DNA of 44,763 nt from the UHGV virus genome UHGV-0246887, one strand, 5' to 3'. The notes beneath the pieces were generated by a model. It made no database searches. It worked only from the letters and a program-made list of their open reading frames with translations, and was not told where the DNA came from. Positions 5,670-34,455 of this stretch are shown one piece after another. How positions within the stretch are numbered: the stretch's first letter is position 1; the number at the start of each line of letters is the position of its first letter. The position numbers and the translations under genes were made by a program. This DNA is from a virus.

Positions 5670-5705
5670 GCGCGGAATGCCGCCACCAATAGGCCGCTTT
5701 GTCAG

Positions 5706-6218
5706 CTACAAACGCCTCGGCATGATAACAAGGAAGGCCCCGCCTTTGAACAGCACACGTGTCGCATTGTCGGCCCCCTGGAATTCCAGTTTTAAGCTCT
5801 CAACCTTACGGTCGAACAATTTAGCAATTTTGCAGGCGTCGGATAGGTATTCCCCTTTAAACCCGATAGCCTCCACTTTAGCGCTGGTGAACGACGAAAC
5901 TCTACGCCAGTCGGGGAATCGGCCGTCTACGTTCTCCATGGGCAGGGTCCCTATTAATACGTCTTTACTATCAAAGAACGCTGCGGAGGTGTCATCTATG
6001 TTGCAGTATTCGAATTTAGTAGGTAAGCGGCCTCTAATTGATACTATTTTACTTTCACCTTCGGGTACAACCGCAGACCCACAGAACAAACGATGTCCGT
6101 CGGAGGCCACGATGAATCCTTTCTCGTCGAAAAATACACCATTCAGATAGTATCGCACGTCATTAGTTGCGGCGCACATCATAGCGGCTTTAAGATCGGC
6201 ATAGTTAACTTTAATCAT
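5706..6218 (-). CDS. Truncated DNA polymerase III beta sliding-clamp (DnaN)-like protein
   Basis: Translation contains DVRYYLNG, IVASDGHRL, VDGRFPDWRRV and C-terminal FLVIMPRRL, matching conserved DnaN segments (domain II start, domain II end, extreme C-terminus) but only about 170 aa; GAGGA RBS before ATG at 6218. Confidence 0.7.
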   Translation of the reverse strand: MIKVNYADLKAAMMCAATNDVRYYLNGVFFDEKGFIVASDGHRLFCGSAVVPEGESKIVSIRGRLPTKFEYCNIDDTSAAFFDSKDVLIGTLPMENVDGRFPDWRRVSSFTSAKVEAIGFKGEYLSDACKIAKLFDRKVESLKLEFQGADNATRVLFKGGAFLVIMPRRL

Positions 6219-6234
6219 TGTCATTTCCTCGTTG

Positions 6235-6266
6235 TTGGTGTGCAACCAATATAGCGCAACCAATTC
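6235..6266 (-). promoter_or_regulatory. Promoter-like region with two ATTGGTTGCA motif copies upstream of the clamp-like gene
   Basis: Minus strand reads TTGCAC-N18-TATATT with motif copies in the spacer and at +1; the same 23-nt string GCTATATTGGTTGCACACCAACA recurs at about 40638. Confidence 0.45.
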
Positions 6267-17022: not shown

Positions 17023-17630
17023 CCACGTTTAAATTGTACGGCGTCTTAGGGCGTCGTTTTGGTAAAGTGCATAAGCTGGACTGCTTCACACCGGGAGAAG
17101 GCATCACCGGCCTGTGTGTGAAGTTGCCTGGGTTACAAGACTTTTTAATGTCGGCCCACCTGGACAATATGATGTTCAAGGTGCGCAAAGGCAACCACAC
17201 GATGACCGGTTATGATGAGCTTGGCGAGTTCCACGGCAACCGCGTAGTGACCATCGCGCCGGTTATGACGGGGGCAAAAAGCGGACTGGGCCAATTGCTG
17301 GCGGGTGTCGCGATTGTAGTGGCGTCGTTCTATACTGGCGGACTTGCTACTGCCGCTTTCGGGGCTTCGGCTGCAACCGCTGCCGCTATAGGTACGGCTA
17401 CATTTTCGTTCGGCATGTCGCTTGCGCTGGGCGGTGCTATGCAATTGCTGTCCCCACAGCCGAAAGGATTGCAGACAAGGCAGGACGTGGATAACAAAGC
17501 GTCGTACGCGTTCGGCGGGCCAGTGAATACAACAGCGCAAGGCACGGCGCTTGGTGTATTATGGGGCGAGCGTGAGATCGGCGGCGCTATTATTTCAGCC
17601 GGAATAGTAACCGAGGACTTGAACGAATGA
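17013..17630 (+). CDS. Tail assembly protein I-like
   Basis: 205 aa with Gly/Ala-rich hydrophobic C-terminal half; between K-like and J-like genes. Confidence 0.55.
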   Translation: MAMTTFKLYGVLGRRFGKVHKLDCFTPGEGITGLCVKLPGLQDFLMSAHLDNMMFKVRKGNHTMTGYDELGEFHGNRVVTIAPVMTGAKSGLGQLLAGVAIVVASFYTGGLATAAFGASAATAAAIGTATFSFGMSLALGGAMQLLSPQPKGLQTRQDVDNKASYAFGGPVNTTAQGTALGVLWGEREIGGAIISAGIVTEDLNE

Positions 17631-20600
17631 CGATTATCTACGACGTCACGGGCCATAAAGGTGGCGGCGGAAAACAGCACACCCCACAGGAGACGCCAGA
17701 CAGCCTGCATTCGCTGGCTAAAATCCGCATCTTGCTCGCACTGGGCGAAGGGGAGTTCGAAAGTATTACCAGCGCCAGCGAATTGCGGCAGCGTGTATAC
17801 CTGGACGGCACGCCGATCCAGAACGCCGACCTGTCGGAAAACTTCCCCGGCGCGCGCGTGGAGTTCCGCCCAGGCACACAACACCAGGATGTGATCCACG
17901 GATTTTCAGCGGTGGAAAGTGAGCAATCTGTCGGCGTAAAACTGGAAAACGGCACGCCGTGGGTGCGCCAGATTAACGATACCAGTCTGGACGCTGTTCG
18001 CATTCGCATCGGCATTCCAGCCTTGTACACTAACGAAGATAATGGCGACCTGGTGGGCGGGCGCATCGACTATAAGATAGTTGTGTATACGGATAACGCC
18101 GACCCGCGTGAGTTCAGATTCGCCGCCGTTGGTAAAACAATGTCGCTATATGAGCGCGACCACCGCATCGAATTACCTCCGAACGTTAACACCGGCTGGC
18201 GCGTGGAGGTGCACCGCATAACGGCAGACTCCACATCGGCGAAAGTGGTTAATGATATCCAGGTGCAGTCCATCACTGAGATTATTGACGCCCGCCTGCG
18301 TTACCCGCTAACCGCGCTGTTGTTTGTGGAGTTCGACGCCAAAGCGTTCCAGAACATCCCTCGCGTGTCCATTAAGTGCAAAGGTCGCAAAGTTCTAATA
18401 CCGAACAACTACGACCCGATCAATCATACCTATTCCGGGGACTGGGACGGCACGTTTAAACGCGCATGGACGGATAACCCTGCGTGGCACTGGTACGATA
18501 TTTGCATTACTGAGCGCTTCGGCCTCGGTCGGCGTATCAAACCGCAGATGTTAAACCGATATGCGCTTTACCAGATTGCGCAGCGCTGCGATCAACTGGT
18601 AAGCGACGGCAACGGCGGGCAGGAAATCCGATTTAAGAATGATATGTACATCCAGTCTCAGACAGACGCCTGGACCGTGCTTAAGGATTTAGCAGCTATC
18701 TTTGCCGGTATGACCTGGTGGGGCAACCAGATGTTGAATATAGTAAGTGACCAGCCGGTCGCAGCGGTATCGCACACCATCACCAACGCCTCGGTCATTG
18801 ATGGTCGATTTGACTACGCGTCCGGTAGCCAGAAAACTCGGTATTCCACATTCGCGGTAGCATACGGCAACCCGAAGAACCACTATGAAGATGCCATTGC
18901 TACGGGGCAGCGTGTCGAACTGGTACGCCGCCATAAGATTAACCGTCTGGATATAACGGCGATCGGCTGTACGCGTGAGTCAGAAGCGCAACGACGTGGG
19001 CACTGGGCGCTAATCTCCAACCAGCTTGACCAGCAAGTTAGCTTTAAGGTTGGCATGGAGGGTCTTTTCTTTATTCCGGGTAGCGTAGTCGCGATCGCCG
19101 ATACAAACATTTCTGGCGGCTTCGAGACACGCGGCGGTCGCCTGTTGTCGGACCCAGGCACGCGTACCGTGCTTAACACAGACAGCGAAATCACGTTCCG
19201 CCCCGGTGATAAATTCCTGGTGCGCACCGATAGCGGTAATGTGGAGACTCGCGAGATCGCCAGCGTCAACGGCAACAAGGTTACGCTAAAAACCGCACTG
19301 GACGCCGACCCTATTCCAGACCAGCCGTTTTGCGTTGATGGCGACGATATCCAGTTGCAGAAGTTCCGCATCACCGACCTGGAATATGACGACTCTACCA
19401 GCACTTTTTCAGTGCGCGGGATTGAGTACAACGACAGCAAGTATGACGCCGTTGATAATGGCGCGCGCCTTGATCCTGGTATCTTTACGCAAGTTCCTGA
19501 CGGCGTAATGAAGGGGCCGGAATCCGTGACTATCACCCCGTCGCAGATTTCATCGCAAGGCCAGCTAATCACCAACGTGGATATTGTTTTCCCGCCGGTG
19601 AAGGATGCCGTTGTATATGAAATCCAGTGGCGACGCACCAGCTTGCAGAATATGGAAATCCAGTGGGGTAACGACTGGGTGAACATTCCCCGTACGGCTT
19701 CGAACGGTGCGCACATCCCGAACGTGTTTTCCGGCAACTACCAGGCCCGCGTCCGCGCGATCGGTATGGGCGAGATTTCCTCCCCGTGGGTGTCGTCTGC
19801 CATCACGCCGGTGGAAGGTCGTCTCGGCGGTCTTAACGCGCCTATCATCACCAACGCGATTTCGGGCCTTCACCAAATTTTGTGGAAGTGGAACCACAAC
19901 AACGCCGCTACGGATATTTCGTACACCGAGCTTGAAGTGCGTAAGACGGGCGAAACGGAATGGAAGTTCTTAACCAACGTCCCATATCCTGGGTCGGAGT
20001 ATGCGCAAACGTCGCTGGAGTTCGGCATCTATCAGCAGTTGCGCGCCCGTGTAGCGGATAAAATCGGCAACCTATCGGACTGGTCTGCCCCGTTTGAAGG
20101 GCAGGTGAGTGACAATGTTGACGAGTATATGAAGGGGCTTGATGACGAGTTCCTGACTTCCGAAGATGGTAAACGCTTCCAGGAAGCGATCGACACCATG
20201 CCGCAAGGCATTTATGAGGCTATGCTCACCGACGCGCAGCAATTGTTTAACGCCCGCGCCGAGTATAAAGGGATTTATGCGGAAATCACGGTGGCGTATA
20301 ACGTGGCGGCGGACGCGCATAAAGCCGTAGCGCAACTGGAAACGTTGATCGGCACGCGCCTTGATGACGCGGAAGCGGCGATCCACACGTTGCAGACGGC
20401 GCAGAGTACGCAGGAACAAGCGTTTGCCCAGTACCAACAAACTGTTGCCGCTAAGTTCGGGGAACAGGAAGCCGCCATCCAGCAGGTGCAAACGGCAACG
20501 GCAGACGTAGCTGGCGCGCTGGCGGAGTATAAGACCCAGGTAGCGGCACAGTTCGGTCAGCAGTCCGCCGCGATAGAGCAGAAGATGACGTCCTCGTTTA

Positions 20601-21073
20601 ACCACTCCGGTGGTAGCGCCACATACAGCCTTAAGGCTGGCGTGACGTATAACGGGACTTACTACGATGCCGGTATGCAGCTTTCCGTTGTGACGTCGGG
20701 CAGCGCGGTTAAATCGCGTATTTCGTTCAAAGCCGACCAGTTCTATATCATGCACCCATCTAATGGGTCGCTTTCGTCCGCGTTTATCGTTGACGGCGGG
20801 CAGGTGTATATTGACACGGCACGCATCAAGGATGCGTCAATCAACTTTGCGCAGATCACGGACACGCTGCAATCAAATAACTTCGCTTCAGGGTCACGCG
20901 GCTGGCGTATCCTGAAAGGCGGCGCTGCGGAGTTTAACGAAGTAACGGTCCGCGGCAACCTGTACGCCACATCGGGTAACTTCGGATTCTCTGGTGGTAC
21001 CGTGACGATCGACAAGACAGGCGTAAACGTGCCGTTACCTGGCGGGGGGAGGGTGAAAGTAGGGACGTGGTAA
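17627..21073 (+). CDS. Tail tip / host specificity protein J-like (central fiber)
   Basis: 1148 aa, lambda J-like size and position at the end of the tail operon. Confidence 0.8.
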   Translation: MTIIYDVTGHKGGGGKQHTPQETPDSLHSLAKIRILLALGEGEFESITSASELRQRVYLDGTPIQNADLSENFPGARVEFRPGTQHQDVIHGFSAVESEQSVGVKLENGTPWVRQINDTSLDAVRIRIGIPALYTNEDNGDLVGGRIDYKIVVYTDNADPREFRFAAVGKTMSLYERDHRIELPPNVNTGWRVEVHRITADSTSAKVVNDIQVQSITEIIDARLRYPLTALLFVEFDAKAFQNIPRVSIKCKGRKVLIPNNYDPINHTYSGDWDGTFKRAWTDNPAWHWYDICITERFGLGRRIKPQMLNRYALYQIAQRCDQLVSDGNGGQEIRFKNDMYIQSQTDAWTVLKDLAAIFAGMTWWGNQMLNIVSDQPVAAVSHTITNASVIDGRFDYASGSQKTRYSTFAVAYGNPKNHYEDAIATGQRVELVRRHKINRLDITAIGCTRESEAQRRGHWALISNQLDQQVSFKVGMEGLFFIPGSVVAIADTNISGGFETRGGRLLSDPGTRTVLNTDSEITFRPGDKFLVRTDSGNVETREIASVNGNKVTLKTALDADPIPDQPFCVDGDDIQLQKFRITDLEYDDSTSTFSVRGIEYNDSKYDAVDNGARLDPGIFTQVPDGVMKGPESVTITPSQISSQGQLITNVDIVFPPVKDAVVYEIQWRRTSLQNMEIQWGNDWVNIPRTASNGAHIPNVFSGNYQARVRAIGMGEISSPWVSSAITPVEGRLGGLNAPIITNAISGLHQILWKWNHNNAATDISYTELEVRKTGETEWKFLTNVPYPGSEYAQTSLEFGIYQQLRARVADKIGNLSDWSAPFEGQVSDNVDEYMKGLDDEFLTSEDGKRFQEAIDTMPQGIYEAMLTDAQQLFNARAEYKGIYAEITVAYNVAADAHKAVAQLETLIGTRLDDAEAAIHTLQTAQSTQEQAFAQYQQTVAAKFGEQEAAIQQVQTATADVAGALAEYKTQVAAQFGQQSAAIEQKMTSSFNHSGGSATYSLKAGVTYNGTYYDAGMQLSVVTSGSAVKSRISFKADQFYIMHPSNGSLSSAFIVDGGQVYIDTARIKDASINFAQITDTLQSNNFASGSRGWRILKGGAAEFNEVTVRGNLYATSGNFGFSGGTVTIDKTGVNVPLPGGGRVKVGTW

Positions 21074-21079
21074 ATGAGA

Positions 21080-21101
21080 AGGGGCCATCCGGCCCCTTTT
21101 T
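21080..21101. terminator. Bidirectional terminator between J-like gene and convergent minus-strand gene
   Basis: GGGGCC-atcc-GGCCCC followed by TTTTT. Confidence 0.65.
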
Positions 21102-22074
21102 AATACATATTCGGGATGACGAGTAGCGGGGTAGGTACGGCAATATTTTTACCTGGCATCTGGAATTGCCGCCGTGAGTAGTTGCCGATGACGCGGTTTT
21201 TAGCGACGCGCACATTATTACCCGCCATACGTATACCGTTCATGCGGACGTGGTTATAGCCCCCGTTGTTCTGAATCAGCGCGCCGGTGTATGAAAGCTG
21301 GATTAGGCTATTTCCGATATTTTGGTCGCCTGTGCCGATGTTAATCGTGCGGTCATATACGAACGGCTTGTTCACTGTCGAGAACGTGACCTGATTCTGG
21401 TTATTCGTCATGGTGATCCCGGCCCCTGGCGTTGGCGGTGTATTGTTGAATATTACCAGGTCCATGTCCACCGAAGCCGCCACATCGTCGATGCCTCCGT
21501 AGGACGCGTTGCGGACGATAATACTGCCACCATCGAAGCCTACTGATACGTTTCCGTCATCCCAGCGGGCGAACGGGACACCGCTAACAGGCAATGCCAT
21601 ACTCCCGTTGACGCGCACGCGCTTCGCGTATCTACAGGTCATCAGCTTAGACACGTTGGATATGGCGGTGAAGTCCGTCGAGTTAGCCACCAGTAAACCC
21701 GCGTTACGCGACCCAACCGGCAGCACTTCCATTATGACGCCCGCCCATTGTGGTAAACCGGAGTATGCGCCATACGCATCCTCACCGCGCAGGGTGATTC
21801 CACTATTACCGTTGCGAGTAACCGACGTGACGTAAAACGGATCTGGTATTACCAGGGTCTGGTCGAACACTTCAAACACCTCTACCGGGCGAGTGAGCGC
21901 GACGATGACCTGCGACCCATCCGTAAGCGGGGTATTAATGGTTAGTGTCTTGTTGGACTGTGCCCGCTGGTTAAAGCTGGTGCAGTATGACGGCGCGCGG
22001 AGTCCGGCGGTAATCTCCATTACCGGCCTTCCGTCGTTATAGTCGATAAGTATTCCAGCGCCCATTATTACCAC
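21100..22074 (-). CDS. Putative receptor-binding protein (encoded opposite to tail operon)
   Basis: 324 aa Gly/Asn/Thr-rich beta-type sequence; reverse orientation directly downstream of J and coupled to a lipoprotein gene, as in T5-like RBP/llp loci. Confidence 0.4.
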   Translation of the reverse strand: MVIMGAGILIDYNDGRPVMEITAGLRAPSYCTSFNQRAQSNKTLTINTPLTDGSQVIVALTRPVEVFEVFDQTLVIPDPFYVTSVTRNGNSGITLRGEDAYGAYSGLPQWAGVIMEVLPVGSRNAGLLVANSTDFTAISNVSKLMTCRYAKRVRVNGSMALPVSGVPFARWDDGNVSVGFDGGSIIVRNASYGGIDDVAASVDMDLVIFNNTPPTPGAGITMTNNQNQVTFSTVNKPFVYDRTINIGTGDQNIGNSLIQLSYTGALIQNNGGYNHVRMNGIRMAGNNVRVAKNRVIGNYSRRQFQMPGKNIAVPTPLLVIPNMY

Positions 22075-22289
22075 TCCCGTGATTTAACTGATACTGTGCC
22101 TGAGAAATTGCCGTCGCTATCTGAAGACAGCCCCGTGAATCGCATGTCCACATCTCCTGCCGGGACTTTTTGCCCATCAACGTAGCGCAACATGCAGCTA
22201 CCGTAAGCAACCGTAATGCAATCGCCGTTGTTGCGATCTGCGGCGCAACCGGACAAAAGAACCGCACAAATCATAATTAAAGTTTTCAT
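22068..22289 (-). CDS. Small outer-membrane lipoprotein, candidate superinfection-exclusion factor (Llp/Cor-like)
   Basis: MKTLIMICAVLLSGC signal peptide with lipobox; 73 aa; AGGGGA RBS; stop overlaps start of the RBP candidate. Confidence 0.55.
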   Translation of the reverse strand: MKTLIMICAVLLSGCAADRNNGDCITVAYGSCMLRYVDGQKVPAGDVDMRFTGLSSDSDGNFSGTVSVKSREW

Positions 22290-22369
22290 GGTATCATCCC
22301 CTATATTTGGTTGAGTTTTAGTATTGCACCGCCCAACCAAGAATGCAACCAATTTATGAGGATTCAGCT
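22290..22369. promoter_or_regulatory. Divergent control region with motif copies (TTTGGTTGAG, CCAACCAAG, TGCAACCAAT)
   Basis: Direct reading; lies between the divergent lipoprotein and tail-fiber genes. Confidence 0.4.
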
Positions 22370-24283
22370 ATGGCAGCGGGTACACTATCCGTAACGAATA
22401 ACAGCAAGGCGGTTGTCGGGGTAGGAACGACGTTTACCGCGTTTACAGCTGGCGACTTCTTAACGCTGGTGGTGGGTCAAGTCCCCTACACCGTAGCGAT
22501 CGCGTCCGTTGAAAGTGCAACCGCGCTAACGCTGGTGCTGCCGTTCGACGGCCCTACGGCAACCGGCCTAGCGTGGGATGGCGTTAAGCGCGACACCATG
22601 TCGCTGGCGACGATGGGCGTAACCGTCCAGGCACAGAAAGCGTTGCGCTTGATGATCGCAGATGAAAACAACTGGCGTGCAATCTTCGGCGACGCTGAAG
22701 AAATCACAGTGACGTTACCTAACGGGCAAGTTATGCAGGGCATGTCGTGGGGCTATTTGTCCTCCTTGCTGAAGGAAGTAGACCCCGTTGAGATGCGCAA
22801 CCTTCAACAACAGGCCGAGACGGCGAAAAACCAAGCTGTTACCGCTAAGGGGCAGGCAGAATCGGCGCGCGACGCAGCTAATACGGCGAAGACTGGGGCG
22901 GAGACGGCACGCGACGCCGCTAATACTGCGAAGACCGACGCGCAGACCGCAAAAGGCCAGGCCGAATCCGCGCGCGACGCCGCTAATACTGCGAAGACCG
23001 GAGCAGAGAACGCTCGCAACCAGGCGCAAGGCTACCGTGATGAGGCGGAAGGTTTTAAAAACCAGATTAACCCTGCACTATTCGTGCAGAAGTCCCAAAA
23101 CCTGAATGACGTTGCCGATAAAGCTGAGGCGCGCGCTAACTTGCAAGTTTTATTTGCGTCAAACTCTAACCTGGGGGATACCGACCTCAACACGCTCAAC
23201 AGCACGAAGGAAGGGCGTTATTACCAGACAACATCGGTGAACGCTACACCAGAGCGTAACTACCCGTTTCAGGAAGCCGGTTGTCTTACCGTGTTTAAAA
23301 CCGGCGGGGGTAGTGTCGAGGCGTGCGTCCAGGAATACACCACGTTTTCAAGCCTACGGCGCTTCGTCCGTTCGCTCGCTGGGGCGGTATGGACGGAGTG
23401 GAAGGAGATCTACCTGCAAGGGTCGTCCCCAACATACGAAAATATCGACTCGACAGGACGAGTTAGATCTGAAAAGGCATATCCAGCATTCGAGTGGGTG
23501 TCGACGAGAGTAGCCGACGATTTCATCGGTAAGCGAGTCAGCATTGAGAACGACACAGGCGTTAATATGTATATGTTCTTCATGCAGAAAGACAGAACCG
23601 CAAACAGACGTGTCGTAGCGTTCGCAAGGCCAAACTCTACTGTTTTCCACTTCGTAGGGTATAACGGCGGGCTACCTACAGGCGGCGACAGCGCCCCGTC
23701 GAATAACGTTAACTTTAACACGCAACCGCAAGGCTGGCGTAAGGTGTCCGGCGGCTGGCAAAATGCACCGCTAGCCGGTAACAATTACGGGACACTATTC
23801 ACGCAATGTATGCAGGGTGTCGCGCAAGGGGATTCGAAAGACAACGGTACATCTGGCTTGTGGTATTCACAGCGATATATTAATACAGAATCGCGGATGT
23901 TTATCCGAAATCAAACAAACAACGCAGCCTGGGGCGGGTGGTATGAATTAACTAAAACGGCAGTCTCGGATGAACGCCTGAAGAATGTAAAAGGGGATTT
24001 GAATGTTGAAGGTGCGCTCGATAACATCAACCGCATGGAATTTAAAATATTCTCGTTTAAGGATGAGAAGGCCGGTAAGGGGTATCGTCGCGGTGTTATC
24101 TCGCAGCAGATTCGCCAGATCGATAAAGAGTACACGAAGGAGATCGGCGGGTACTATCACCTCGACCAGACACCAATGCTACTGGACGCCCTAGCGGCAA
24201 TTAAGGCGTTGCGTGCGCGTGACGAGGCTAATAAAGCAGAGATTGCAGAACTGAAGGCGGCTATTGCCGAATTGAAGAAATAA
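22370..24283 (+). CDS. Tail fiber protein with C-terminal intramolecular chaperone (peptidase S74-like) domain
   Basis: Three tandem ARDAANTAKTxAx repeats; C-terminal SDERLKNVKG...coiled coil resembles auto-cleaving chaperone domains of phage fibers/endosialidases. Confidence 0.65.
   Translation: MAAGTLSVTNNSKAVVGVGTTFTAFTAGDFLTLVVGQVPYTVAIASVESATALTLVLPFDGPTATGLAWDGVKRDTMSLATMGVTVQAQKALRLMIADENNWRAIFGDAEEITVTLPNGQVMQGMSWGYLSSLLKEVDPVEMRNLQQQAETAKNQAVTAKGQAESARDAANTAKTGAETARDAANTAKTDAQTAKGQAESARDAANTAKTGAENARNQAQGYRDEAEGFKNQINPALFVQKSQNLNDVADKAEARANLQVLFASNSNLGDTDLNTLNSTKEGRYYQTTSVNATPERNYPFQEAGCLTVFKTGGGSVEACVQEYTTFSSLRRFVRSLAGAVWTEWKEIYLQGSSPTYENIDSTGRVRSEKAYPAFEWVSTRVADDFIGKRVSIENDTGVNMYMFFMQKDRTANRRVVAFARPNSTVFHFVGYNGGLPTGGDSAPSNNVNFNTQPQGWRKVSGGWQNAPLAGNNYGTLFTQCMQGVAQGDSKDNGTSGLWYSQRYINTESRMFIRNQTNNAAWGGWYELTKTAVSDERLKNVKGDLNVEGALDNINRMEFKIFSFKDEKAGKGYRRGVISQQIRQIDKEYTKEIGGYYHLDQTPMLLDALAAIKALRARDEANKAEIAELKAAIAELKK
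22800..23030 (+). repeat. Tandem ~39-nt coding repeats in the tail fiber gene
   Basis: Repeated gcgcgcgacgccgctaatactgcgaagac units; they generate repetitive ORFs in the other frames. Confidence 0.6.
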
Positions 24284-24287
24284 ATAG

Positions 24288-24311
24288 AAGGGGCCGTATG
24301 GCCCCTTTTTT
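24288..24311. terminator. Bidirectional terminator between tail fiber gene and minus-strand early operon end
   Basis: AGGGGCC-gtat-GGCCCCT followed by TTTTTT. Confidence 0.7.
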
Positions 24312-24885
24312 AGTTTGAGTTTTCCCAGTCCATTTTGCGCCGCACTAGCGGGCTTTCGTAATACTCCTTCCCATCCACTTCCACTAAGGGCCAGTCATTA
24401 ACAATGACGTAAGGCTCTGCGATATCCTCGATCACGCCGTGCGCGCTATGTTGTCCGAAATCTACGCCCACCAGGATAACCCCGGCAACGCGACGAGTGA
24501 GATACTCGCGAGCGCAACGGGCCTCGACCAGTCCTCGACGTATGCCGCTGGTGGCCTTAACCTCGTAGGTCCAGACGGCATCGATCACATGTTCTCGGAA
24601 GTCGGGGCCGGATTTTACCTTGCGCTTGCCGACCATGATAATATCGCCGCGGTCGATCGTGTTAGCGCTAAACAGGCCGGTACGCATTAGCAAACCTTGC
24701 GGGATACAGCTACGCCCGCCCGCCTGTCCTTCGAGGTACATGCCAGCAAACATCTCGCCCAGCACACCGACAAGACGGCTTTGCTTGCAAGCGTCGGACT
24801 TGTATCGCCACTGGTCAAACTCGATGCTGGCAATCATTGCTGCCAGGTGGAATTGTTTACCGGTTATTTCATATTCGCCGTACAT
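24310..24885 (-). CDS. Hypothetical protein, possible PD-(D/E)xK nuclease fold
   Basis: GDIIMVG...IDAVWTYEVKA resembles a D...ExK motif; last gene of the minus-strand operon. Confidence 0.35.
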   Translation of the reverse strand: MYGEYEITGKQFHLAAMIASIEFDQWRYKSDACKQSRLVGVLGEMFAGMYLEGQAGGRSCIPQGLLMRTGLFSANTIDRGDIIMVGKRKVKSGPDFREHVIDAVWTYEVKATSGIRRGLVEARCAREYLTRRVAGVILVGVDFGQHSAHGVIEDIAEPYVIVNDWPLVEVDGKEYYESPLVRRKMDWENSN

Positions 24886-24926
24886 TGTGTGGTCCTCATT
24901 GATGCGGGCCGAAGCCCGCGATTAAA

Positions 24927-25478
24927 TTATTTAAGTGCGCCAGTCACAAGTGTTTTTTCCATGTTACGGAAATCTTCCGGCGTCATGAGGATTTTAGACC
25001 CGTCCTCGCCAGTGAGCACGACCATAGGCTGGACGTCCTGATCTGCGATGCCGAAATTAGCGGCTTTAACCGTTTTACCGGGGGTAAATGCGTCTCCTGT
25101 TTTGACGGGCCAACCTTTGAGGCTATCGAATTGTGCTGCCGTTGTATCGATCTGAATCTCGTCATGCACGGTCATGTAAGACTCGCCCAGCAGGGCGGCA
25201 TACGCCACCAGGTCCACGATGTTATCTTCCTGGTGCTTACGGGTCTGGCGCACCAGCTTCAGGCAGATCAGGAAGGTCCAGGCTTCTTGCTCGGTAAGGT
25301 CGCGCCCGGTAAGCGCGTTAAACACGGCGGCGATCTGTCTAGCGCTGCGTTCCTCTTTCGCGTTGTCATAGCCGTTTTCTTTCCCGCGCTGTTCCATAGT
25401 GGTGGCGGCGTTTTTGCAGTATTCGTATGCTTTCACAGTATTACCCTTTTTAGTGAGGGGGCGGTATTGCCCCGACAC
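24927..25478 (-). CDS. Hypothetical protein (start uncertain)
   Basis: 183 aa ORF; alternative GTG start with AAAGGG RBS further in; no confident family assignment. Confidence 0.4.
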   Translation of the reverse strand: MSGQYRPLTKKGNTVKAYEYCKNAATTMEQRGKENGYDNAKEERSARQIAAVFNALTGRDLTEQEAWTFLICLKLVRQTRKHQEDNIVDLVAYAALLGESYMTVHDEIQIDTTAAQFDSLKGWPVKTGDAFTPGKTVKAANFGIADQDVQPMVVLTGEDGSKILMTPEDFRNMEKTLVTGALK

Positions 25479-25489
25479 GTTTACTATAG

Positions 25490-25511
25490 TGCAACCAATC
25501 TATTGGTTGCA
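25490..25511. promoter_or_regulatory. Palindromic motif pair TGCAACCAAT-cta-TTGGTTGCA
   Basis: Perfect inverted repeat of the recurrent motif in an intergenic gap. Confidence 0.5.
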
Positions 25512-27159: not shown

Positions 27160-27190
27160 TAATGCAACCAATATGATTATGCAACCAATT
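27160..27190. promoter_or_regulatory. Two direct ATGCAACCAAT motif copies
   Basis: Direct reading; intergenic. Confidence 0.5.
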
Positions 27191-34415: not shown

Positions 34416-34440
34416 TTCGGCTTGGTTGCTAATCTACTTG
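34416..34440. promoter_or_regulatory. Two CTTGGTTGC motif copies
   Basis: Direct reading; intergenic between membrane-protein gene and SSB gene. Confidence 0.4.
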
Positions 34441-34455
34441 GTTGCGCCTGAGCGG

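Follow-up and report, generated by a model that had tools for sequence, protein, structure and literature searches.

The closest characterised counterpart of the locus reported here is that of Escherichia phage Oekolampad (Bas18), whose receptor was identified genetically as LptD (Maffei et al. 2021). The complex of its receptor-binding protein (RBP), RBPOeko, with Shigella flexneri LptDE was solved by cryo-EM at 2.8 Å (9RPT, 9RPW, and 9RQI; Dunbar et al., PNAS 2025, PMC12685063). According to that article, the open, 27-stranded LptD takes RBPOeko deeply inserted from the extracellular face, the interface covers ~1,700 Å2 with 22 hydrogen bonds and involves mostly EL3-5 and EL11, and the LptD substitutions D352Y and Y671N each abolish both RBPOeko binding in vitro and infection. 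The same article describes the lipoprotein Rtp45 of phage Rtp bound to LptDE from the periplasm, in a position between LptE and LptM (9RPS). There it makes a β-sheet with residues 318-323 of LptD and extends a hairpin upward inside the LptD lumen; this hairpin displaces EL4 by up to ~20 Å and gives an LptD conformation that refuses the RBP. The Oekolampad-type lipoprotein could not be expressed and was substituted by Rtp45, and as far as this text goes the blocking role of Rtp45 rests on the complex structure rather than on an in vivo exclusion assay. A 2026 preprint covering 255 phages reported that one protein family at the RBP locus tracks LptD.

A second described system, that of T5, follows the same logic: a single RBP (pb5, encoded by oad), carried at the central-fibre tip, engages an outer-membrane β-barrel, and the product of a neighbouring gene, the small periplasmic lipoprotein Llp, disables the receptor. 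The receptor of T5 is FhuA, and Llp acts on it by long-range allostery through the FhuA plug, whereas Rtp45 physically displaces the loops of LptD. Disorder of the RBP on the side facing the phage is common to the T5 and RBPOeko complexes. The Cor proteins of T1, phi80, N15, and HK022 (phrog_1119, FhuA blockers) are likewise small lipoproteins encoded near tail-tip genes and have been implicated in receptor inactivation.

We analysed the 44,763 nt of the virus genome UHGV-0246887, hereafter the window. Positions 20500-23000 matched 158 phage records in a megablast search, nearly all of them Dhillonvirus coliphages; the best were StarDew, a Shigella phage (94.9%), and Oekolampad (93%). The ORF map of the window was collinear with the full Oekolampad annotation, which indicates that the window looks like a complete genome; judged from these sequence relationships, it is a Dhillonvirus genome. 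A tRNA search of the window found none, and Tandem Repeats Finder reported no repeats over 20000-25000. The GC content and skew showed no anomaly across the locus described below, and its composition therefore shows no sign of recent foreign origin.

Two close-packed minus-strand genes had been proposed between a J-like gene and a lateral fibre gene in a first-pass annotation made from the sequence alone, and this layout was confirmed by the ORFs and their Pfam matches. The J-like tail-tip gene (17627-21073, plus strand) matched FNIII-A_GpJ, Phage-tail_3, and Phage_Tail_Tip, the last at residues 982-1118. It converges on the RBP gene (21100-22065, minus strand, 321 aa), which ends with TAA at 21102-21100, so that 26 nt lie between the two stop codons. 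The lipoprotein gene (22068-22289, minus strand) precedes the RBP gene and encodes a precursor of 73 aa, of which 59 aa would form the mature protein. Its stop codon (TAA, 22070-22068) is separated by a gap of 2 nt from the ATG of the RBP gene (22065-22063), and a Shine-Dalgarno sequence, GGGAG, is found at 22074-22078, 8 nt 5' of that ATG. An 80-bp divergent control region (22290-22369) follows, and then the plus-strand lateral tail fibre gene, whose protein carries a C-terminal Peptidase_S74 chaperone domain by Pfam. Homology to Oekolampad and AV129 points to ATG 22370 as its most likely start, and a start at 22343 is disfavoured.

The RBP gene product matched DUF6453 (PF20051) over residues 4-297 of 321, scoring 401.9 bits where the gathering cut-off is 25 (E 2e-120), and the lipoprotein matched the "Phage lipoprotein family" (PF24052) at 77 bits, the gathering cut-off being 27 (E 1.1e-21). 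These matches indicate that both genes are real and not chance ORFs. The order of lipoprotein and RBP genes, tightly packed and convergent on J, was the same in Rtp, TheodorHerzl, AV129, StarDew, and Oekolampad. The Oekolampad genes bas18_0025 (RBP) and bas18_0026 (lipoprotein) are orthologues of the window genes, with flanking genes, hairpin, and control region alike; the downstream lateral tail fibre sequences of the two phages diverge after ~450 bp. The allele of Rtp (rtp44/rtp45), AugustePiccard, and TheodorHerzl has the same Pfam families, gene order, and LptD receptor. Nevertheless, the drexlervirus Rtp belongs to a separate allele class, with an RBP 34% and a lipoprotein 36% identical to those of the window and a different matching J C-terminus, and its stop and start codons share one base where the window has the 2-nt gap.

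The claim that the larger minus-strand gene encodes an RBP was well supported. Its product was identical at 312 of 321 residues (97%) to chain C of 9RPT, 9RPW, and 9RQI, the only PDB sequence that it matched, and differed from the Oekolampad RBP by V15R, D49A, I54V, F64I, E95D, S139A, A215T, G246S, and R299Q (window to Oekolampad). An AlphaFold2 model built with a 70-sequence alignment was all-β and shared the fold of RBPOeko seen by cryo-EM, whereas a single-sequence run reached a pLDDT of only 28. The length had been given as 324 aa, which we revise to 321 aa because the Oekolampad annotation and the PDB construct both begin MGAGIL; the GTG at 22074 that the longer reading requires falls within the Shine-Dalgarno sequence and has no usable ribosome-binding site. 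An identical (100%) RBP was present in the public read-set assembly P0001. The 321-aa protein is thus the predicted terminal RBP of this phage, binding LptD of the LptDE translocon.

In regards to the smaller gene, the 73-aa lipoprotein with an LSGC lipobox proposed in the first pass was confirmed by the sequence, PF24052, and phrog_4281 (E 3e-33). The protein begins MKTLIMICAVLLSGC..., and reading of the sequence placed the lipobox at L-S-G-C, with acylation at Cys15 and with Ala in position +2; the signal peptide MKTLIMICAVLLSG is followed by the mature sequence CAADRNNGDC..., in which Cys15 is the first residue. Under the Lol sorting rule, Ala at +2 sends a lipoprotein to the outer membrane, and this is therefore the predicted destination of the window lipoprotein. 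A 94-aa version starting at TTG, as annotated in StarDew, is unlikely, as it would extend into the promoter region. The lipoprotein was identical to bas18_0026 at 71 of 73 residues (97%; differences A17V and D18E, window to Oekolampad). Its only real PDB match was Rtp45 (9RPS chain D, E 6e-9), with which it shared 36% identity (E 3e-13); Cys24 and Cys32 aligned with the Rtp45 disulfide Cys30-Cys38, and the VPAGxVD motif was kept. NCBIfam held no family for the RBP or the lipoprotein and gave only weak TraV signal-peptide matches. The reading of this protein as a receptor blocker agrees, through the Rtp45 family, with published work, and the lipoprotein probably blocks LptDE from inside infected cells as a predicted superinfection-exclusion factor. 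For this allele the mechanism is carried over from Rtp45 by homology, since the Oekolampad-type lipoprotein could not be expressed by the PNAS authors, and with an identity of only 36% an exclusion role here remains a prediction.

We compared both proteins with the T5 and Cor systems, since the locus had been likened to T5-type RBP/llp loci. The likeness holds for the functional logic and fails for sequence, fold, receptor, and gene layout. No sequence or fold similarity was detected between the window RBP and T5 pb5. A BLASTP alignment of the lipoprotein with T5 Llp covered only signal-peptide residues 2-16 (E 0.018), and a PDB search with the lipoprotein at E ≤ 1 gave no Llp match. Against Cor (phrog_1119), only lipoprotein residues 1-30 matched, at profile positions 1-32 of 78 (E 7.7e-4), and the mature part belongs to phrog_4281/PF24052 instead. 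The searches against pb5, Llp, and Cor thus gave no relationship beyond signal-peptide matches, and membership in these families was rejected. The receptor differs as well, being FhuA for T5 and Cor and, by prediction, LptD here. In T5, moreover, llp and oad point away from each other and each has its own annotated promoter, whereas in the window the lipoprotein gene comes first in what appears to be a single operon with the RBP gene.

We mapped the boundaries of allelic exchange by aligning the window with TheodorHerzl, a Dhillonvirus with an Rtp-like allele (RBP 32% identical). The identity was at least 0.9 up to ~20950, 0.3-0.6 up to ~22299, and 0.9 again thereafter. This drop indicates that the swapped block runs from ~40 codons before the end of J through the hairpin and the RBP gene into the lipoprotein gene, of which it spares only the first five codons. 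In the end of J (20950-21073, plus strand), where the identity to TheodorHerzl falls to ~0.5, the last ~30 aa are allele-specific: the window agrees with Oekolampad, and TheodorHerzl with Rtp and a Citrobacter prophage. We infer that the J end, the RBP, and the lipoprotein are swapped as a block between phages. Receptor-specific GpJ C-terminal domains have been reported (2026 preprint), and this literature model together with the co-variation suggests that the J C-terminus is the surface on which the RBP docks.

On the RBP side, residues 1-30 were the most conserved stretch among 70 DUF6453 homologues (0.78-0.87), and a Citrobacter phage protein has only residues 1-34 in common with the RBP. 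The loop at ~119-140 is also conserved (residues 119-134) and was modelled at low confidence. PMC12685063 describes poor order in the RBPOeko map for the region of the RBP nearest the phage. These observations are consistent with RBP residues ~1-30 and loop 119-140 forming the phage-proximal face that docks on J. DUF6453 genes of Citrobacter, Salmonella, and E. coli prophages encode proteins 50-56% identical to the RBP and lie directly after J in the same orientation, without an adjacent lipoprotein gene. Their position supports a structural role in the tail, and their arrangement indicates that the reverse orientation and the coupling to a lipoprotein are features of the virulent small siphoviruses.

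Taken together, we read the locus as an exchangeable Dhillonvirus host-range cassette that combines an LptD-binding RBP with an Rtp45-type exclusion lipoprotein, and we put the probability of this reading at about 0.9. The RBP would be carried distally on the J-like central fibre, with its N-terminal ~30 residues and loop 119-140 facing the allele-matched last ~40 residues of J, and would insert into the extracellular face of open LptDE, contacting EL3-5 and EL11 of LptD as does the near-identical RBPOeko. After export and acylation at Cys15, the 73-aa precursor would be directed to the outer membrane, where it would then act like Rtp45. LptDE blocked in this way would be unable to bind the RBP of a second phage, or that of progeny meeting cell debris. 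Such a module of RBP and superinfection-exclusion factor is already known, its orthologue having been solved at atomic resolution, and is ordinary in this phage group.

The last step can be weighted differently: the lipoprotein may chiefly spare progeny virions from inactivation on LptD-bearing envelope fragments after lysis, by the same molecular mechanism. Such a role was reportedly proposed for T5 Llp and Rtp45 by Braun's group, in work ascribed to Decker (1994) and Wietzorrek (2006). An operon shared with a virion protein fits late and abundant expression, but the homologous lipoprotein gene of phage SU10 is found among small genes of the early region, which suits early exclusion; the two roles are not mutually exclusive, and the present data are compatible with either. 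We regard progeny protection as the chief role as a possibility of some weight, though a doubtful one. A much smaller chance attaches to the proposal that the lipoprotein is an assembly or chaperone factor for the RBP. This would explain the translational coupling, the stop and start codons being 2 nt apart and the arrangement equally tight in all alleles examined. However, a protein with a lipoprotein signal peptide and lipobox leaves the cytoplasm, in which the RBP would assemble; its homologue Rtp45 directly binds LptDE, RBPOeko folds and binds LptDE without the lipoprotein, and the DUF6453 genes of the prophages and of Kuravirus have no adjacent lipoprotein gene. We therefore consider a chaperone role very improbable.

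The RBP itself could be something else, namely a host-directed membrane protein or moron, with J acting as the RBP as in phage lambda. PHROGs assigns the protein to phrog_1265, labelled "membrane protein, moron", several RefSeq records call it "membrane protein", and the gene has the opposite orientation to the tail operon. Nevertheless, a 97%-identical protein was purified in soluble form and solved bound to LptDE, a complex that rules this out for the Oekolampad orthologue. The all-β model, in a sequence where we saw by eye neither a signal peptide nor a hydrophobic helix, the place of the prophage homologues directly after J within the tail operon, and the tracking of receptor specificity by alleles of this gene over ~100 siphoviruses also argue against it. 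We conclude that the phrog_1265 label is misleading for this protein and that a moron function is scarcely credible. A less far-fetched but still unlikely alternative concerns specificity, in that the nine substitutions, notably the one at 299, would shift the RBP to a variant LptD (e.g. of Shigella) or let it escape resistance alleles. R299 is rare (2 of 14 close relatives), Q299 hydrogen-bonds LptD Ser350 (EL4) beside the D352Y resistance hotspot, and the host used to isolate StarDew, the closest relative at the DNA level, was Shigella boydii. Against this, LptDE of S. flexneri and that of E. coli share >99% identity, and the sites of the other eight changes are variable in close relatives. 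With an interface so extensive in area and hydrogen bonding, a single conservative polar substitution would probably not suffice to retarget the RBP.

With the locus read as an LptD-targeting cassette, genes mostly recorded as "hypothetical" or "membrane protein" receive a firm annotation (LptD receptor, RBP, and superinfection-exclusion lipoprotein), and the RBP start codon and the StarDew-style call of a 94-aa lipoprotein are corrected. The mapped boundaries, from the last ~40 codons of J to about codon 5 of the lipoprotein gene, define the unit to transplant for re-targeting a small siphovirus. Since LptD is essential, LptD-binding RBPs and their blockers are of interest in phage steering and as probes of the open LPS translocon.

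The same combination of families was also found in podophages of the Kuravirus group, exemplified by SU10. The SU10 tail needle protein gp18 carries the J-type Phage_Tail_Tip domain (PF09327). SU10_019, encoded next after the gp18 gene, matched DUF6453 (E 2e-23) and was 24% identical to the window RBP, and SU10_0104, among the small early genes, matched PF24052 (E 3e-36) and was 43% identical to Rtp45. The 267-aa short tail fibre protein SU10_016 was considered as a DUF6453-like match and rejected, as it had no similarity and matched Gp10_C in Pfam. The SU10 structure paper does not mention SU10_019, current Kuravirus models assign the receptor-binding task to fibres recognising O-antigen and LPS core, and our literature search found no paper linking Kuravirus to LptD. 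We tentatively suggest, as a conjecture we would not yet favour, that a J-type tip, a DUF6453 RBP, and an Rtp45-family lipoprotein make up a portable device for targeting LptD whose range extends beyond siphoviruses. If so, the Kuravirus needle would carry a DUF6453 RBP with LptD as its terminal receptor, an early lipoprotein would serve as the exclusion factor, and LptD targeting would extend to a podophage lineage.

We examined the signals that may drive and end expression of the two genes. The divergent region had been described as motif-rich, and this was borne out: the 80-bp spacer contains three copies of TTGGTTG, at 22307-22313 (plus), 22334-22340 (minus), and 22346-22352 (minus), and the window holds 24 copies against 5.9 ± 2.4 expected from shuffles. 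Oekolampad has 23 copies against 5.6 expected, in the same places. Genome-wide, TTGGTTG(C) appears as a promoter-associated motif: the copies are nearly always paired and upstream of genes, and at several sites the first copy gives a -35-like hexamer, TTGCAT, 17 nt before a -10-like hexamer. In the spacer, a candidate leftward promoter toward the lipoprotein gene consists of a -35 element TTGCAT (22343-22348), a 17-nt spacer, and an extended -10 element TGcAATACT (22320-22328); the lipoprotein Shine-Dalgarno sequence, GGGGA, is at 22297-22301. A consensus promoter and terminator scan called no promoter in the spacer, and its total of sites was no more than in shuffles, so that the assignment remains a reading of the sequence. 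The spacer was ~95% conserved in five Dhillonviruses, and since one of these, TheodorHerzl, has a different RBP allele, the spacer lies outside the swapped block. The lipoprotein and RBP genes would form one leftward, translationally coupled operon, driven from the 80-bp spacer and ending at the hairpin shared with J, and the operon may be controlled by a phage-specific promoter/operator class marked by ATTGGTTGC.

The GC-rich hairpin between the convergent J and RBP genes lies at 21075-21102; its core, AAGGGGCC-ATCC-GGCCCCTT (21079-21098), fills the 26-nt spacer. On the plus strand it folded with -20.9 kcal/mol (z -3.97) and was followed by TTTTT, and on the minus strand the same stem gave -15.8 kcal/mol (z -2.78) with a poor U-tract, UUCUCAUUU. 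The hairpin was absent from the output of the consensus promoter/terminator scan. In regards to the bidirectional terminator proposed in the first pass, the signal is persuasive at the end of J but less so at that of the RBP operon, and termination in both directions is plausible yet asymmetric. A near-identical hairpin was observed at the next convergent junction, at 24286-24309.

The receptor-binding protein (RBP) of the window carries Arg at codon 299 (21169-21171) in place of the Gln found in RBPOeko, the Oekolampad orthologue that has been solved on the LPS exporter LptDE. Gln299 of RBPOeko is reported to form a hydrogen bond with LptD Ser350 in extracellular loop EL4, beside the D352Y resistance hotspot. 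Arg299 is rare among close relatives (2 of 14), and the remaining eight differences from RBPOeko all fall at naturally variable positions. The best-conserved part of the family is residues 1-30 (21976-22065), with an identity to the query of 0.78-0.87 across 70 homologues, and the protein of Citrobacter phage HCF1 has only residues 1-34 in common with the RBP (82%). These alignments suggest that the N-terminal ~30 residues serve as a conserved adaptor, through which different receptor-binding bodies are attached to tail tips of the J type.

DUF6453 genes are also present in enterobacterial prophages (Citrobacter contigs L007:2825-8199 and L008). The prophage gene, whose product is 55% identical, lies 3 nt after the J gene in the same orientation, the next gene encodes a Phage_tail_C_2 protein, and no adjoining lipoprotein gene was found in the prophage contigs examined, whereas the RBP gene of the window is reversed and coupled to a lipoprotein gene. 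The reversed gene direction and the link to a lipoprotein gene thus seem to be peculiar to those virulent small siphoviruses that were examined.

In regards to the podophage Kuravirus SU10 (KM044272; L011:9089-11090 and L010:2468-2749), the tail needle gp18 possesses a J-type Phage_Tail_Tip domain, and the adjoining, unassigned gene encodes a DUF6453 member (SU10_019, E 2e-23). SU10_0104, located amid early small genes, is a lipoprotein of the family of Rtp45, the superinfection-exclusion lipoprotein of phage Rtp (PF24052, E 3e-36; 43% identical to Rtp45). The presence of all three suggests that LptD may be the terminal receptor of Kuravirus podophages, contacted via the needle tip. Our literature search found no paper tying Kuravirus to LptD.

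The lateral tail fibre gene was called at 22343-24283 by the ORF finder; its start is probably ATG 22370 rather than 22343, as this codon has a GAGGA Shine-Dalgarno sequence and agrees with the Oekolampad and AV129 starts. Likeness to relatives ends about 450 bp into the gene, which marks a second host-range swap point. At about aa 165-215 the protein has imperfect repeats of the AKGQAESARDAANTAKTGAE type, which Tandem Repeats Finder missed, and it ends in a C-terminal Peptidase_S74 intramolecular chaperone domain. Between this gene and a convergent 191-aa minus-strand gene (24310-24885) lies the hairpin AAGGGGCC-GTAT-GGCCCCTT (24286-24309), which the terminator scan called on both strands. 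It is a near-copy of the hairpin between the convergent J and RBP genes, indicating that one hairpin design is reused at both junctions. The 191-aa protein matches the unknown-function family phrog_10558 (E 8e-120) and gave no Pfam hit; a D...EVK motif, read by eye, is reminiscent of PD-(D/E)xK nucleases.

The heptamer TTGGTTG, most commonly as aTTGGTTGC, occurs 24 times in the window versus 5.9 ± 2.4 expected. The copies form clusters at 6243-6263, 22307-22352, 25492-25509 (a palindrome), 27165-27188, 34422-34444, 40154-40249, 40615-40652, and 43983-43993, plus single sites; they are intergenic, 5' of genes, and, apart from the palindrome, arranged as direct pairs. The first copy often supplies a TTGCAT -35-like hexamer, and Oekolampad has 23 copies at positions kept relative to the window. 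The heptamer has the look of a promoter or operator element specific to Dhillonvirus, for which we know of no regulator.

Within the plus-strand head-gene block, a minus-strand ORF (5706-6263) is the counterpart of Oekolampad bas18_0007. Upstream of this ORF lie a good Shine-Dalgarno sequence and a promoter-like element made of paired TTGGTTGC. The overlapping plus-strand ORF (5677-6150) is probably spurious.
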